Notes under the pieces: generated by a model
Databases searched by the model: none
Told to the model about the DNA's origin: nothing
The model's input: only the letters and a program-made list of their open reading frames with translations
Source: an uncultured Acidobacteriota bacterium
GTDB lineage: Bacteria > Acidobacteriota > UBA6911
Length of the DNA stretch: 64,000 nucleotides
Assembly (NCBI GenBank): GCA_963827655.1
Contig: CAWHCF010000019.1
Coordinates: forward strand, 23,298-87,297
Reading direction: 5' to 3'
Shown here: one piece after another, positions 22,760 to 62,712 of the stretch
Layout: the number at the start of each line of letters is the position of its first letter
How positions within the stretch are numbered: the first letter of the stretch is position 1
Made by a program: the position numbers and the translations under genes

Positions 22760-23482
22760 TTAGTTCAATCCAAAAACGAGGAAATATTGATAGGGAAGGA
22801 AGGTATGTTCTTTCAGCAGTCGAAATCCATGCGTCTCCATCTGCCGCACCAGATCTTCTCGCGCGATCTTCATCTCGAGCCGCGGCCCGACCGGCAGTTC
22901 TTTCTTGTGGAAGTCGATCATTACCACTTGCCCTCCAGGCTTCAGCATCTTCTTTATTAACCCTAGATATTTCGCCTGGTTTTCCACGTGATGCCATGTA
23001 TCGCAGATGAAGAATCGGTCAATCGACGCATCGAGGAGGAGCGGGTCATCCGCCACCGAAAGGACCGTGACGACGTTCTTCAAGCCCAGGTCCCGAACGC
23101 GGCGATTCATGTGCAGAATCATGTCGGGGCTGATGTCTACAGCGTAGACTCTGCCCGTATCTCCGACCTGTCCGGCAAATCGAAAAGAAAAGTAGCCGGA
23201 CCCGGCGCCGATATCCGCAACAATCTCGCCCTCCTTGAGGGCAAGCGCGTTCAGGACTTCGTGCGGCTTCTGGTAGGCATCCCGTTTAGGATCCTCCAGC
23301 ATCGCTATGAGCGCCTTGGGATCCTTGTGCAGGCGATGCATCTCATGCTGGTCGCGCCTGACAGCATCCTGCGCCACCAGCATGATCCCAACCGCCAGAA
23401 AAGCGAATTTCACGGTGTTTCCCGGCTTCCTCGCGACCAGGGCTGCGCAAAATACTTCACTGGCGCGAGAGTCGGTGGTCAA
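22760..23482 (-). CDS. Class I SAM-dependent methyltransferase (start uncertain)
   Basis: 'VADIGAGSGYF', 'VYAVDI'. Confidence 0.85.
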   Translation of the reverse strand: MTTDSRASEVFCAALVARKPGNTVKFAFLAVGIMLVAQDAVRRDQHEMHRLHKDPKALIAMLEDPKRDAYQKPHEVLNALALKEGEIVADIGAGSGYFSFRFAGQVGDTGRVYAVDISPDMILHMNRRVRDLGLKNVVTVLSVADDPLLLDASIDRFFICDTWHHVENQAKYLGLIKKMLKPGGQVVMIDFHKKELPVGPRLEMKIAREDLVRQMETHGFRLLKEHTFLPYQYFLVFGLN

Positions 23483-57986: not shown

Positions 57987-58238
57987 ATGAAAATGAATAC
58001 CAAATCCAGCATAACTCTGCCAGCGGCCGAGGTTCGCGTCGTCGAGCGCCTTCAGAAGAAACTACGCGCACGGACCAAGGTGGAGGTCATCCGCCGGGCA
58101 CTCCGTCTCCTTCAGGAAACAAGCGATCGGGCTGAGCTTCGTCGCGCGTTCCGGGAAGCATCGGTGGCATGCCGTAAGGTTACCCTGAAGGAAATTGAAG
58201 AACTCGATGCTCTCACCTCCGAAGGACTCAACGAATGA
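57987..58238 (+). CDS. Putative ribbon-helix-helix antitoxin
   Basis: 'KSSITLP', 'TKVEVIRRAL'; ATGA overlap with MazF gene. Confidence 0.78.
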   Translation: MKMNTKSSITLPAAEVRVVERLQKKLRARTKVEVIRRALRLLQETSDRAELRRAFREASVACRKVTLKEIEELDALTSEGLNE

Positions 58239-58576
58239 CCGGCCGCCATGGCCATCTTTATCTGGCCGATCTCAATCCACGCTTCGGAACCGAGCCGGGG
58301 AAGCTACGACCAGTAGTTGTCATTCAATCGGACCTCCTCAACCAGGCTGGTCATCCCTCAACCTGGATTGTGCCTTGTACTACGCGCCAGGTCGGCGATA
58401 ATCTTCTCCGCGTTGTCCTTCCCGCCGGTTCCGCCGGAAATCGCCAGGACTGCGAGATCATGATCGATCAGAGTCGCGCGATTGACAATCGACGTATCAA
58501 GCGACTTTTAGGCCCTCTTCCTTCCTCACTCCTCCGCGAGGTGAAAGAAAAACTGCGCCTGCTCGGTGATCTGTGA
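58235..58576 (+). CDS. mazF: PemK/MazF-family toxin
   Basis: 'ADLNP..GTEPGKLRPVVVIQ', 'DQSRAIDNRR'. Confidence 0.9.
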   Translation: MTGRHGHLYLADLNPRFGTEPGKLRPVVVIQSDLLNQAGHPSTWIVPCTTRQVGDNLLRVVLPAGSAGNRQDCEIMIDQSRAIDNRRIKRLLGPLPSSLLREVKEKLRLLGDL

Positions 58577-58640: not shown

Positions 58641-58706
<66 letters not shown>

Positions 58707-59358
58707 TATGTTGCCTCCCATCCGGCAAAACTCTGCCACGGCGTGACATTTTCGGCAAACATAAGCGTTGTATGAAGTTCTGGGATGCGGGTAGTCGACT
58801 CCGCGTCCCAAGGCGTCCACTCGTTTCTCGTCGTTGTGGAGTTAGGGTGGGCACAAAATTGGGCACAGTGCCGCGACAATGAAGCCCGAACCTAGAACCG
58901 GCGAAGAGCTCGAGGCCGCCGGCTACCAATTCGACGGCCTGAAGACCAACGAAGGCCTGCCCTGCCGGCCAAATGCCGTGGCTGCGGCGCCGATGAGAGT
59001 TTACAATCATTATCGATCCTCCGGAACGAGAGTCTCATCGTGACGACCCGTTTAGTTTGCGATTCACGATTTTTAAATGAATTCAGGCCGCTGAGCGTTG
59101 CAAACATCGGGTCTGTTTCGTCGCAAAGCTGTTTGGTTAAATAGTCAGGGTTCAGGGGCCCGCTCAAAATGCTTGGTTGCTGGTACACAATTTGTCCGGC
59201 CGTTGAGCAACCAGTCCAGCCGTCTCCTCGGTGCTTCTGCTATCTACGGTTGTCCGCCTCTATGACCTTCTGGCAAAGGAACTTGTCGCCGATTTGGCGG
59301 CAAACACATACAGTGACCTAGTTTAATATACTTGAAATCTAAGGGTTTATGTCAACCT

Positions 59359-59484
59359 TTCTACAATACGCGCCGCAGCCATTCCTATCTCGGCTTCAGC
59401 TCACCGGTAGAATAAGAAAGGATCTATGCCAGTCTACCAATCGCAGCATAACCAGGGTGCTGCCACTTATCCTGGGGAGGCCCA
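59359..59484 (+). mobile_element. IS3-family 3' remnant
   Basis: 'FYNTRRSHSYLGFSSPVE' followed by a right end '...cacttatcctggggaggccCA'. Confidence 0.7.
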
Positions 59485-59603
59485 GTTCGGCATATCTATT
59501 CTCTGGGCGGAAGAAGTGCCATGCGCGATGGAAGGAGCACCTCGAAGTTCACCTCGAGTTGATTCACTGCTATTACAATCCTGCTTCATACTGCCTCACC
59601 TCA

Positions 59604-61694
59604 CTATGTGTTTGATAATCCAAAGGTTAATTGTCTGACGTCCTGTCCCGCAAGGGTTCTCCGATCCTGTCTCGTCGCTTTGATGCGTTCCCGCGCCGTC
59701 GGCTGATCCAGATCGCTGCGCCGAAAGACCCAGGGACCAATACCAAGTGGATGGAGCGATGGCACGTCTCGTCGCTCGGCAGCACGCCGCAGCGTTTTGG
59801 GCGTCACATTCAAGTATGATGCCGCTTCCCCCAGGTTCATCCAGCCTTCCGACTTCCGCCTCTCCTCGGAGTAGACTGGGATTCCATGATAGTTCCGCAG
59901 CGACACCACGCGTTCTTGTGTCCACCGATTGCCGGGGCCGGTTCGAAGGCCATTCCGATTAAGGAACGCGGCAATCCAGTCATCCCTGCATATCGCAGCG
60001 AGAACCCTCACCACATTGATCGTCTCAACGGGTGTGTCGCTGCTGGTCTGGCCGCGGCGCCGGCGGCGGATGCGGAGTTCGGTGTGCGTGTCTCCTTTCC
60101 AATGGAGGACCAGAACAATCTCGCCTTCATCCGAATTCACGTCCACGACGACTTCCTCGATGAGTGTTCGCACGATGCGTTTCTTCAGCCTGGCGTCGGT
60201 CCTCGAATCTTTCCAGACTGACTCCAAGTCCGCGCTCAAATCCTGCAACTGTTCCGGGCTAGGCGGCGTGATCTGGCCACGCCGGTGCTCGACCTCTTCG
60301 ATCCGGTTCTCCATCTCGCGCACTTTGGCGAGCCCGGTATTCCAACGCCTCTCGAGTTCCTCTGCAACCAGACGATTCCCGGGATCCGCTAGATCGTACT
60401 GCCGTCGGGCTCGTTCTGCTTCGTACCGCGCTGCCCGCAGTTCCAAGCCCAACGCGCGCAATACCTCGTCCTGCTTTTCCGTTTTCTGCTGAGCCGCTCG
60501 AAGTGCGGCCTCCACCGCAGCGGGCTCGACAACCCGCAGTACTTCGCGAGCGATGGCCTCGTCAACCGCGGTGCCACCGAAAGAAATGCATTTGGGTTCA
60601 CCTTGGTCGAACGTTCCGCGCCGACACTGATACCTCACCGCGTCGTGGTGTTGTCCCGTATAGGTCACCATCAGCTTCCGGCCGCACTTTCGGCAGCGCA
60701 GGAGGCCGGCCAGCAGCGCCGGACCCATCTTCGGAGCACCCGGCGTGGAGGCGTACCAAGTCTGAGAGTTCTTGGTGATCATGTGACTGACCTGTTCAAA
60801 TTGGTCCCAGGTAATGTAACCTTCATATCGATCCGGGATCAACACAGACCAGTCTTTCATGGGTTTTCGCACAGCCACCTTTTTGAGCCGGCCATCGCGA
60901 ATAGCCGTCACGACGGCGGATCTGCCATACCTGTAGGCACCCGCATAAATCGGGTCTTTCAGAATGTTCAGGACGGAAGAGTAGGAGGGACGTTTCCATA
61001 CCGTCTCCGTTGCTCCTGCCGTGTGGTGGATTACTGGTAAGTCCAGCCCTTGTTCAACAAACCACAGCATCGTTTGTCGCACTGTCCCAAGCTCGAGAAA
61101 CTCCCTAAACACCAAACGGATGGCTTCCTGCACGCGCAGGTCCGGGTCCTTCTCCAGCCGCTGATCCGGGGTCTTGACGTAGCCGATCGGCGCTGCAACC
61201 ACCAGTTCGCCGCGCGATGCCTTTTGCCGGCGCGCTTCCTGGGACCTCTGTCTCAACAGGTCGAGTTCGTATTCGTTCAAACTCCCTTTCAGTCCAAGCA
61301 GGAGGCGGTCGTTGCTGTTTCTTGAGTCATAAACCACCTCCTGGTCCAACAGGAGCGTGTCCACCATCCGACAGACCTCGATCAGCTGCTGCCAGTCCTT
61401 GCTGTTGCGGGCAAAGCGCGAAACCTCTCGTGCCGCCACCACGCCTACTCGTCCGAGGCAGACTTCGGCAACCATTCTCTGAAATCCGCTCCGCTCCACG
61501 CCGCCTGATGCCGAGCGGCCCAGATCCTCATCGATGACGTTAACCTCCTGCCATCCGAGATCTCGAATCCGTTGTTTCATCGCGTACTGCAGACGCCGGC
61601 TCTCCTCGTTGTGGGTTACCTGAAACGTTGATGACTGGCGAACGTACAACACTGCATTCCGATCCAAGTGATGTGTCTTGATTTTTTCATTCAT
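59604..61694 (-). CDS. Large serine recombinase with zinc ribbon, coiled coil and C-terminal HTH
   Basis: 'YVRQS' (Ser21), 'EVSRFAR', 'CRKCG...YQC...KC', C-terminal 'MNLGEAASYLNVTPKTLRR'. Confidence 0.95.
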   Translation of the reverse strand: MNEKIKTHHLDRNAVLYVRQSSTFQVTHNEESRRLQYAMKQRIRDLGWQEVNVIDEDLGRSASGGVERSGFQRMVAEVCLGRVGVVAAREVSRFARNSKDWQQLIEVCRMVDTLLLDQEVVYDSRNSNDRLLLGLKGSLNEYELDLLRQRSQEARRQKASRGELVVAAPIGYVKTPDQRLEKDPDLRVQEAIRLVFREFLELGTVRQTMLWFVEQGLDLPVIHHTAGATETVWKRPSYSSVLNILKDPIYAGAYRYGRSAVVTAIRDGRLKKVAVRKPMKDWSVLIPDRYEGYITWDQFEQVSHMITKNSQTWYASTPGAPKMGPALLAGLLRCRKCGRKLMVTYTGQHHDAVRYQCRRGTFDQGEPKCISFGGTAVDEAIAREVLRVVEPAAVEAALRAAQQKTEKQDEVLRALGLELRAARYEAERARRQYDLADPGNRLVAEELERRWNTGLAKVREMENRIEEVEHRRGQITPPSPEQLQDLSADLESVWKDSRTDARLKKRIVRTLIEEVVVDVNSDEGEIVLVLHWKGDTHTELRIRRRRRGQTSSDTPVETINVVRVLAAICRDDWIAAFLNRNGLRTGPGNRWTQERVVSLRNYHGIPVYSEERRKSEGWMNLGEAASYLNVTPKTLRRAAERRDVPSLHPLGIGPWVFRRSDLDQPTARERIKATRQDRRTLAGQDVRQLTFGLSNT

Positions 61695-61872
61695 TGCTCG
61701 ACCCTCCTTGTTTCTGATCCCCCGCGTTTTGATCCAGTCGATCCCGAAACATCCGAGCGAGGTCCTGCAACACCTTTTCTCGGGTCGTCTCGGGGAGGGT
61801 CTTCCAGTCGGGATCTTCGAGGGGGGGGTGATACAACTCCAGCTGCTTGAGTCGGCGAAACGGTCTGGGCAT
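61687..61872 (-). CDS. Small accessory protein of the recombinase element (61 aa)
   Basis: SD AAGGAGGT before ATG 61872; 'QLELYHPP...PDWKTLPETTREKVLQDLARMF'; stop overlaps recombinase 5' end. Confidence 0.65.
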   Translation of the reverse strand: MPRPFRRLKQLELYHPPLEDPDWKTLPETTREKVLQDLARMFRDRLDQNAGDQKQGGSSNE

Positions 61873-62214
61873 GGGCACCTCCTTGAACTGCCTCAAGTTG
61901 ATGCCCGCCTTGTACCACGTCGGAATCGTCCGTGCCGAGAGCACGATCGAGAAGCTGACGCAGCTGCCTCAAAGCCTCCGCGTCGACAAGAGCAGTCTGG
62001 CTCAACGTCATCGTTGAGCAGACGGCACTGTCTAGCATCCAAACGGGAATGTCGAAGCCTCTACGTCCTACGTCGCTGTGAGGATCACACCTGGCAACTA
62101 AGCCGTTTTTCCAGCGCTGTTCCAGACGGACTGGGATCGATTGCCTGTAGAGGGGATGCCAGGGATAGTGAACTTCCCGAAGCTCAGTCTTGTGTGTCTT
62201 GTGTTGATGGGTTG
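61691..62214 (-). CDS. Start-less ORF (DUF5372/Y4bD-like) completed only in the excised circle
   Basis: Open frame 'TTHQHKTHKTELREVHYPWHPLY...IPVWMLD...' from the element end; no in-frame ATG/GTG/TTG before 62038; stop overlaps recombinase ATG. Confidence 0.7.
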
Positions 62215-62712
62215 TACAACTTCGTCAGGCCTCACATGGCGCTGAAGTTCGGACTCGAGGTCCGGACACCGGCCATGCAGGCGGGATTGAGCACCAGGCG
62301 GCTGACGTTCCGGGAGATCTTCTCCTCGACCTGCATTTTTTGGCGCTGCGAAATGTCACTCTCGTGTTCTTCGACTCCGCCTTGTTGGTCGATGTGGACC
62401 ATTCGCGTCTTTCTATGGCGGCGTAGCAACACTGGATGGCGGAAGCACCGCAGCGTTTCTCGCCCGTCTCGCAGACGCGTACCCCGCTTTTTCTACCGGT
62501 ACGATGAGGCGCCGCTCTTGATCGTGAACAGCAGCGTATCAATTTCGCCGGACGATCGGTCGCATCTCGACCTTCTGGTATCGCGAATCGGCGGCATGCG
62601 ACGCCGGCGCGAGTTTTTTTCAATATTGGCCAGTTCGCGTGACGCTTTCGAAGCTGGATCGACATCGCTCATGCAGACGAGCTCTTTGCGCGACTTCGGG
62701 GGCGCAAAAAAT

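Follow-up and report, generated by a model that had tools for sequence, protein, structure and literature searches.

The 64,000-nucleotide window analysed here, positions 23,298 to 87,297 of contig CAWHCF010000019.1 (assembly GCA_963827655.1) from an uncultured Acidobacteriota bacterium, contains at 59574-62214 what is very probably one copy of a cargo-free mobile element, of the size of an insertion sequence (IS), that is moved by a large serine recombinase (LSR) and re-inserts at codons for the motif Y-[N/H]-x-x-R-x-H. As the genes it occupies are those of IS transposases, the element looks like a parasite of insertion sequences. This reading rests on the junctions of the element with an IS1-like transposase remnant, on related IS copies from which it is absent, on near-identical copies in other host genes, and on the constancy of the codon at which it is found. 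An initial annotation, made from the letters of the window alone, had already proposed several of these points, and the results below uphold some of them and modify others.

Insertion of the element into an IS1-like transposase gene

The interrupted gene is represented by two pieces on the forward strand. The upstream piece (59388-59573), a remnant of an IS1-like transposase corresponding to approximately residues 210-270 of 336, ends ...HLELIHCY-Y; the open reading frame (ORF) at 59349-59615 encodes HLELIHCYYN, the DNA before the junction being ...cactgctat followed by TACAA (59574-59578). A second TACAA (62215-62219) opens the downstream piece, YNFVRPHMALKFGLEVRTPAMQAGLSTRRLTFREIF (62215-62352, approximately residues 269-314), such that the right flank from this point encodes (L)YNFVRPHMALKFGLEVRTPAMQAGL, and the palindrome TTGTACAA (ttgtacaa, 62212-62219) spans the right junction. 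The window therefore retains only approximately residues 210-314 of the 336-residue transposase. The base preceding TACAA is t on the left and g on the right, and the base following it is t on the left and c on the right; hence exactly 5 nt are common to both junctions, and a direct reading bears out the description of these flanks in the initial annotation.

The 8.2 Mb genome to which the window belongs was searched for other copies of this IS (C19 denotes the contig of the window, and C2, C6, C26, C28, C31, C45 and C49 denote other contigs). The complete 336-residue transposase at C49:6291-7301 (minus strand), which scores 80.5 bits against NCBIfam transpos_IS1 (cut-off 100) and 24.6 against Pfam DDE_Tnp_IS1 (cut-off 24.1), reads without interruption through the site as ...ELLRCYYNFVRPHRALKFG, and the copy at C2:220159-220533 also has ELLRCYYNFVRPHRALKFG-type sequence there, both in agreement with the CYYNFVRPH that had been predicted for uninterrupted homologues. 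With the C49 protein as the tblastn query, the left piece is found at C19:82685-82876, equivalent to 59388-59579 of the window; the tblastn match of the right piece is C19:85512-85649, and this downstream piece has 80% DNA identity with five other IS copies in the genome. The copies on C6, C45, C28 and C31 are fragments or are degenerate at the insertion point. Overall, the IS1-like family comprises about 20 fragments in this genome, with C49:6291-7301 as the sole full-length copy and most of the others truncated or degenerate at the YN motif.

Empty alleles of the IS, which the initial annotation had suggested seeking, are present in public data. When the contigs of four soil runs, from four different studies, were compared with the window, contigs joining 59573 directly to 62215 were found in all four, skipping exactly 2641 bases with 5 letters ambiguous. 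These contigs differ from the window flanks at 4-6 letters per 68-188 compared, and so represent related empty IS copies rather than proof that this particular copy has been excised. The 2641 bp element, the borders of which are ambiguous within the 5 nt TACAA, splits an IS1-like transposase remnant at a conserved tyrosine codon without target duplication.

Gene content of the element

All genes of the element lie on the minus strand and consist of the LSR, a 61-residue ORF (orfY) and a divergent DUF5372-like ORF (orfX), with no cargo; the initial description of a cargo-free, IS-sized element is thus accurate, with an LSR and two small ORFs accounting for its 2641 bp. The same length is found in the relatives L015, L018, L059, L063 and L067 (L-numbers refer to related loci and metagenome contigs). 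The LSR (59604-61694) is an intact ORF of 696 residues with the catalytic motif YVRQSS, in which Ser21 is taken to be the nucleophile from its place in a Y-x-R-x-S motif. Its Pfam domains are Resolvase (PF00239, residues 14-163, E = 1.5e-19), Recombinase (PF07508, residues 189-309, E = 2.3e-16), Zn_ribbon_recom (PF13408, residues 327-383, E = 1.7e-6) and a C-terminal HTH_17 (residues 618-664, E = 9.9e-8), while no Pfam match to DUF4368 was obtained at E <= 0.01. The closest solved chain is SprA/YokA of SPbeta (E = 3.5e-8). The best NCBIfam match is XisF (NF041201), at 106.9 bits against a cut-off of 375, and the protein lies far under the NCBIfam cut-offs for both XisF and Ccr.

Upstream of the LSR, orfY (61687-61872; MPRPFRRLKQLELY...) is preceded by AAGGAGGT and begins with an ATG of its own, while its last bases overlap the start of the LSR. 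Its Shine-Dalgarno (SD) sequence, ATG and reading frame are kept in L015, L018, L016 and C49a, the last being a paralogue in the same genome; no family in Pfam or NCBIfam matches it. In the metatranscriptome run X15, contigs cover parts of 60181-62216, including the LSR and orfX/orfY, at 98-100% identity, and one X15 contig spans the empty IS site; these contigs from an RNA library could reflect either transcription or DNA carry-over.

Mobility and choice of target

A search of metagenomes for the pattern of the left end of the element recovered 15 contigs. The mobility of the element is apparent when the first 450-700 nt of its interior are compared between copies alongside 200 nt of their flanks. 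The window copy is 97.6% identical to L058 inside the element and 78.6% identical in the flank, and it is 96.7% identical to L069, in which the flank is a different transposase with no similarity. Likewise, L015 is 96.6% identical to L060 and 93.6% identical to L061 in the interior, with flanks at 75.5% and 77.6%. Such near-identical elements in diverged or unrelated hosts require independent insertions, in agreement with the suggestion that the element parasitises other IS. In runs X5 and X15, contigs that part from the window at 62216/62217 likewise continue into other coding sequences for Y-H-x-x-R-x-H.

The junctions of the clade with a TA core, to which the window copy and C49a belong, were read in the orientation of the host gene, giving 15 downstream arms, 13 of them distinct. 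In all 13, TA forms the first two bases of a tyrosine codon (59574-59575 in the window) and the arm encodes Y-[N/H/S]-x-x-R-x-H; an open transposase frame is present in nine of the ten upstream arms, the exception being L065. At least five groups of host gene are represented in this clade, one of them IS1-like; the others read H-Y-H-x-E-R-N-H-Q-G-L (C49a, L016 and L036), W-Y-N-Q-G-R-V-H-Q-G-L (L018), Y-Y-H-R-A-R-T-H-L-A-L (L067) and Y-H-D-S-R-C-H-L-S-L (L069). In nucleotide terms, each downstream arm begins TA-Y-M-A-Y, with G at +8 (12/13) and with G at +12 and CA at +17/+18 (13/13), and these conserved positions track the codons of the protein motif. TACAA itself occurs in just 8 of the 13 distinct arms, so the target is TAY-MAY. 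The initial annotation, which had anticipated TAYAA within the YN motifs of transposases, was correct as to the codon and too narrow as to the sequence.

In both C49a and L067, TA is the sole dinucleotide common to the two junctions, which places the crossover at the centre of the palindrome TTGTACAA, as had been proposed. The junctions fit a conservative crossover at a 2 bp TA core, at these presumed cleavage positions, with no duplication of the target. Judged from these aligned sequences, the specificity is relaxed at the level of DNA and strict at the level of the motif; the relaxed, multi-site specificity attributed to the enzyme therefore holds across the DNA of at least five host groups and does not extend to the encoded motif, to which all 13 arms conform. 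One metagenome contig, L065, carries a copy outside any recognisable IS gene, in which the host flank starts with a 7 nt mirror image of the element end.

Distribution of related elements

Relatives of the LSR were found at 43 loci in species-representative genomes, spread over Acidobacteriota, Actinomycetota, Burkholderiales, Verrucomicrobiota, Planctomycetota and other groups, and in at least 646 records of plasmids, the majority of them from rhizobia. In the two plasmid regions inspected, the only gene labels are 'recombinase family protein' and 'hypothetical protein'; the PLSDB annotation around these copies is uninformative, as its gene table omits pseudogenes. The ORFs flanking the relatives were scanned on both strands with Pfam, at 28 loci on the right and 30 on the left. 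IS-type domains are found to the right of the LSR at 19 of 28 loci on the opposite strand and at none on the same strand, and to the left at 10 of 30 loci, again always on the opposite strand.

Among the other clades, that of the Burkholderiaceae, with 42-43% identity and a CC core, interrupts IS66 orf2 at a profile position of ~42-47; three pieces on the right flank correspond to positions 2-47 of the profile, and six on the left flank to the profile from position 42 onwards. Paraburkholderia sp. HD33-4 has four copies on four replicons, of which one (L041, on assembly_1) is outside IS66, its CC core lying in unrelated DNA with no recognisable IS gene. Elsewhere, L032, L033 and L035 adjoin an IS66 tnpC ending at profile position 268 of 284, L037 and L048 follow IS21 istA-like genes, and L038 and L046 lie in IS4-type genes, the former identified by eye only and the latter by a weak DDE_Tnp_1 match.

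Several paralogues are present in the genome of the window itself. Two of them lie inside rve-type transposase genes: the one at C49:888-2984, with 57% identity, interrupts its host at ...REFLIH/YHEERNHQGL, with the slash at the junction, and the one at C49:479716-481617 comes after an rve_3 domain that breaks off at position 32 of 67. There is one further paralogue on C45 and two on C26. The host of the C45 paralogue at first looked IS91-like from a motif, but the 15 flanking ORFs scanned at this locus (L012) gave no Pfam match, and no host is assigned to it or to the two C26 paralogues. On C26, a small resolvase-type serine recombinase fragment (L014:2141-2602, minus strand; Resolvase E = 2.6e-31) and an HTH_32 ORF adjoin a frameshifted LSR paralogue with its own DUF5372-like ORF, and this site seems to have accumulated several recombinase elements.

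The orientation of insertion is constant throughout. The LSR runs antisense to the host gene in each of the five TA-clade host groups and in every IS host of the other clades. In serine integrases, polarity is held to be set solely by the central dinucleotide, and a palindromic TA core should accordingly give both orientations. The initial annotation had likewise read the symmetric TA as allowing either orientation, an expectation at odds with every insertion that can be read. Orientation is perhaps determined by some other asymmetric contact, such as one made by the extra C-terminal helix-turn-helix, or else insertions in the opposite orientation may be lost through selection.

A gene split between the ends of the element

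The first gene in the operon of the element, orfX, is divided between the two ends of the element. The head of the gene is at the 3' end of the element (59575-59602, minus strand), directly after the LSR stop codon, and consists of GAGGTGAGG (59594-59602), an ATG (59587-59589) and four codons up to the TA core; it is conserved in the window copy, L015, L018, C49a and L016. The body (CTTHQHKTHKTELREVHYPWHPL...IPVWMLD...LRQLL; 61892-62218, minus strand, in a frame open to 61691) has no start codon, and in the window the host flank offers no in-frame start between the junction and a TGA three codons further upstream. Since the ribosome-binding site and ATG of orfX are located at the other end, the gene is whole only when the ends are joined. 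Across the junction of such a circle, the ATG is in frame with an ORF bearing an HYPWHP motif in all eight records that could be assessed by script (the window copy, C49a, L015, L016, L018, L059, L063 and L067; L064 and L065 were left out because the record begins <=13 nt from the left end), and the same arrangement was read by hand in the Burkholderiaceae clade. Among these elements the peptide is conserved although the nucleotides vary, as would be expected of a genuine coding sequence.

The likeness of orfX to DUF5372 (PF17342) is seen through distant relatives of the element, the equivalent ORFs of which match this family in L039 (5e-24), L040 (2e-24), L048 (9e-19), L037 (4e-18) and L026 (2.9e-5). 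An alignment of ten window-type orfX sequences (A1), compared with these DUF5372-positive ORFs by hhalign, gave a probability of 95.6% and an E value of 1.1e-8. The AlphaFold model of orfX has a pLDDT (predicted local distance difference test score) of 82. A search of the literature for DUF5372 found no paper. The frame of orfX continues without a stop for about 60 codons beyond the conserved region (61691-61876, minus strand), overlapping orfY in another frame and ending in a TGA that overlaps the LSR ATG; in relatives it ends earlier, at 140 residues as opposed to 179. In distant clades (L037, L039, L040, L043, L048 and L013:9183-9869), orfY is replaced by an HTH_28/HTH_32 protein of ~170-230 residues, located between the DUF5372 gene and the recombinase, and those elements are correspondingly longer.

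A model for the life cycle and the evidence against it

These features suggest a cycle in which the LSR would excise the element as a circle through conservative recombination at the 2 bp TA core, restoring the frame of the host gene exactly and without a scar. The circle, with an attP carrying TTGTACAA, would then re-insert into DNA encoding Y-[N/H]-x-x-R-x-H. As several families of DDE transposase keep this motif, one element can use many IS families, which could serve it as harmless, multi-copy and horizontally travelling landing sites. Joining of the ends would give orfX its ribosome-binding site and start codon, and the overlapping orfY and LSR may be expressed along with it, whereas insertion would strip orfX of its head and quiet the element. 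The orfX gene, perhaps together with the downstream orfY and LSR genes, might in this way act as a sensor of state, on in the circle to favour re-integration and off once inserted.

A broader proposal, possible as a whole but short of probable, has several parts. LSR mini-elements might constitute a large class of hyperparasites, so far unrecognised, homing to DNA for conserved catalytic-region motifs of transposition proteins; within it, the TA-core clade would read the codons of a motif common to unrelated DDE transposases, such that a single element could pass from one IS family or phylum to another; the DUF5372-like protein made only by the circle might be a switch of integration state, acting as a directionality or target-capture factor; and some determinant besides the central dinucleotide might set the orientation, against the rule accepted for serine integrases.

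A number of observations weigh against the interpretation of the window element as an active parasite of IS. It is single-copy in its genome while the intact targets on C49 and C2 are unoccupied, and it is thus possibly inactive, or rarely active, here. No contig joining the ends back to each other was seen in the four soil runs, which hold contigs only, such that rare forms drop out, and in 128 records a right-end motif was never found leading into a left-end motif; these null results are not taken as evidence that the circle is absent. A scan of 59400-62400 for sigma-70-like promoters gave no sites, the window orfX matches no Pfam family at E <= 1, and a Foldseek comparison of its model with the PDB returned nothing at E <= 0.001 (best 0.63). 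As to the targets, some of the 13 distinct arms may derive from one old insertion inherited with its IS, the upstream arm of L065 has no open frame, and the Pfam flank scans gave no IS hits for L041, L045, L026 and L030. The occurrence of a single orientation despite the palindromic core also sits uneasily with it.

Some of these facts would be accounted for if the window copy were a dead relic of a once-mobile element, namely its solitary state beside two empty targets and the failure to detect a circle junction, to which can be added the decay of the host IS itself to a fragment. Such a fossil is rather unlikely, as its three ORFs and both ends are intact and soil data of several studies contain copies 96-98% identical to it in different contexts. 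A second alternative is that an LSR of weak specificity, of the TnpX/TndX type, inserts at many short TA sites and that insertions in IS genes merely persist as harmless. The wide variation of the upstream arms from site to site is in line with this, as are the apparently non-coding target of L065 and the location of L041 outside IS66. However, insertions would then be expected to scatter over the length of IS genes and in intergenic DNA as well, while all 13 distinct downstream arms start at the same motif codon and the IS66 orf2 clade always splits its target within the same few profile positions; this explanation is considered improbable.

It is much less probable still that the window copy is a regulatory intervening element, like XisF/fdxN or skin, kept for programmed excision. 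The LSR does have XisF as its best NCBIfam match, and excision at a 2 bp core would restore the transposase frame exactly. However, the interrupted gene is a truncated remnant lacking ~210 N-terminal residues, and excision would hence restore nothing useful, while the same element is also found in genes and genomes with no relation to these, which identifies it as selfish mobile DNA; the reading was rejected on both grounds. The notion that the LSR is a passenger or accessory gene of a composite IS1-like element, prompted by the element and IS family that the window shares with L015, was also rejected and has almost no probability left, given the intact IS copies without the element, the empty sites and the 97%-identical element in the unrelated transposase of L069.

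Comparison with known mobile elements

The preferred interpretation, a cargo-free LSR element re-inserting at a transposase motif, has its nearest parallels in the clostridial transposons Tn4451/Tn4453 (TnpX) and Tn5397 (TndX), which also use an LSR as their transposase, with a 2 bp core, no target duplication and several targets, and which move through a circular form, as is presumed here. The completion of a gene in the circle alone also resembles the logic of the Tn4451 joint, which, as Lyras and Rood are said to have described in 2000, creates the promoter of tnpX. The differences are nonetheless considerable: those transposons are ~6-20 kb in size, compared with 2.6 kb and no cargo here, their core is GA rather than TA, and the joint of Tn4451 forms a promoter, whereas here it would form coding sequence, linking an SD and ATG to the gene body. 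In addition, the targets in the present case are conserved codons of IS genes. The TnpX/TndX-type clade is marked by DUF4368, found in 63% of the multi-targeting LSR clade (PMC10083194), a domain with no match in this LSR.

Phage and island serine integrases, such as SPbeta SprA and those of PhiC31, Bxb1 and A118, have in common with the LSR the Resolvase, Recombinase and zinc ribbon domains and site-specific insertion inside a gene. They carry tens of kilobases and use one attB, with an asymmetric core setting the orientation. The LSR of the window differs in its extra C-terminal region of ~180 residues with HTH_17, in its many attB variants and in its palindromic core. A further likeness is with inteins, homing introns and IS4321/IS5075, which home to conserved sites or to mobile elements, the last to the inverted repeats of the Tn21 family. 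In each case the target is kept constant by selection on the host element, always available and harmless to the cell to occupy, but here the chemistry is that of a serine recombinase, and what is targeted is DNA encoding a protein motif common to unrelated transposase families. Finally, IS607 is similarly an IS-sized serine recombinase element lacking inverted repeats and target duplication (PMC6188088 and PMC4058570). The DNA-binding domain of its TnpA is N-terminal and its target specificity minimal (same sources), in contrast to a 696-residue LSR with its catalytic domain at the N-terminus (14-163), HTH_17 at 618-664 and a defined codon as its target.

Genomic neighbourhood

A tRNA-Ser(CGA) gene lies at 58645-58736 on the minus strand, ~650 bp upstream of the IS remnant, and just before it two overlapping small ORFs of 83 and 113 residues occupy 57987-58576 on the plus strand, the larger of which is tentatively presumed to resemble a MazF/PemK-type toxin. 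The IS remnant and the element may belong to an island beside the tRNA-Ser gene.

Implications

The literature searched, including passages of the large LSR survey PMC10083194, yielded no account of cargo-free LSR elements with IS genes as their targets; the supplementary target tables of that survey could list transposases. The points that appear new are the TA-core clade itself, the targeting of a motif common to several transposase families, the evidence from empty sites and multiple contexts in soil, and the puzzle of orientation. For recombinase engineering, these elements provide natural sets of closely related LSRs with a defined attP, many attB variants and a putative built-in on/off gene arrangement, and the unexplained control of orientation at a symmetric core is relevant to the same field. 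For genome annotation, split transposase 'pseudogenes' may be occupied target sites.

The element is a selfish one living on selfish elements, and its kind is widespread in plasmids and across phyla. The choice of a motif that transposases have to retain would supply it with targets that exist in many copies, do the cell no damage and are mobile in their own right. The element can silence the IS copies that it enters, and precise excision could reactivate them, such that its movements would matter for the dynamics of IS in the genomes that carry both.

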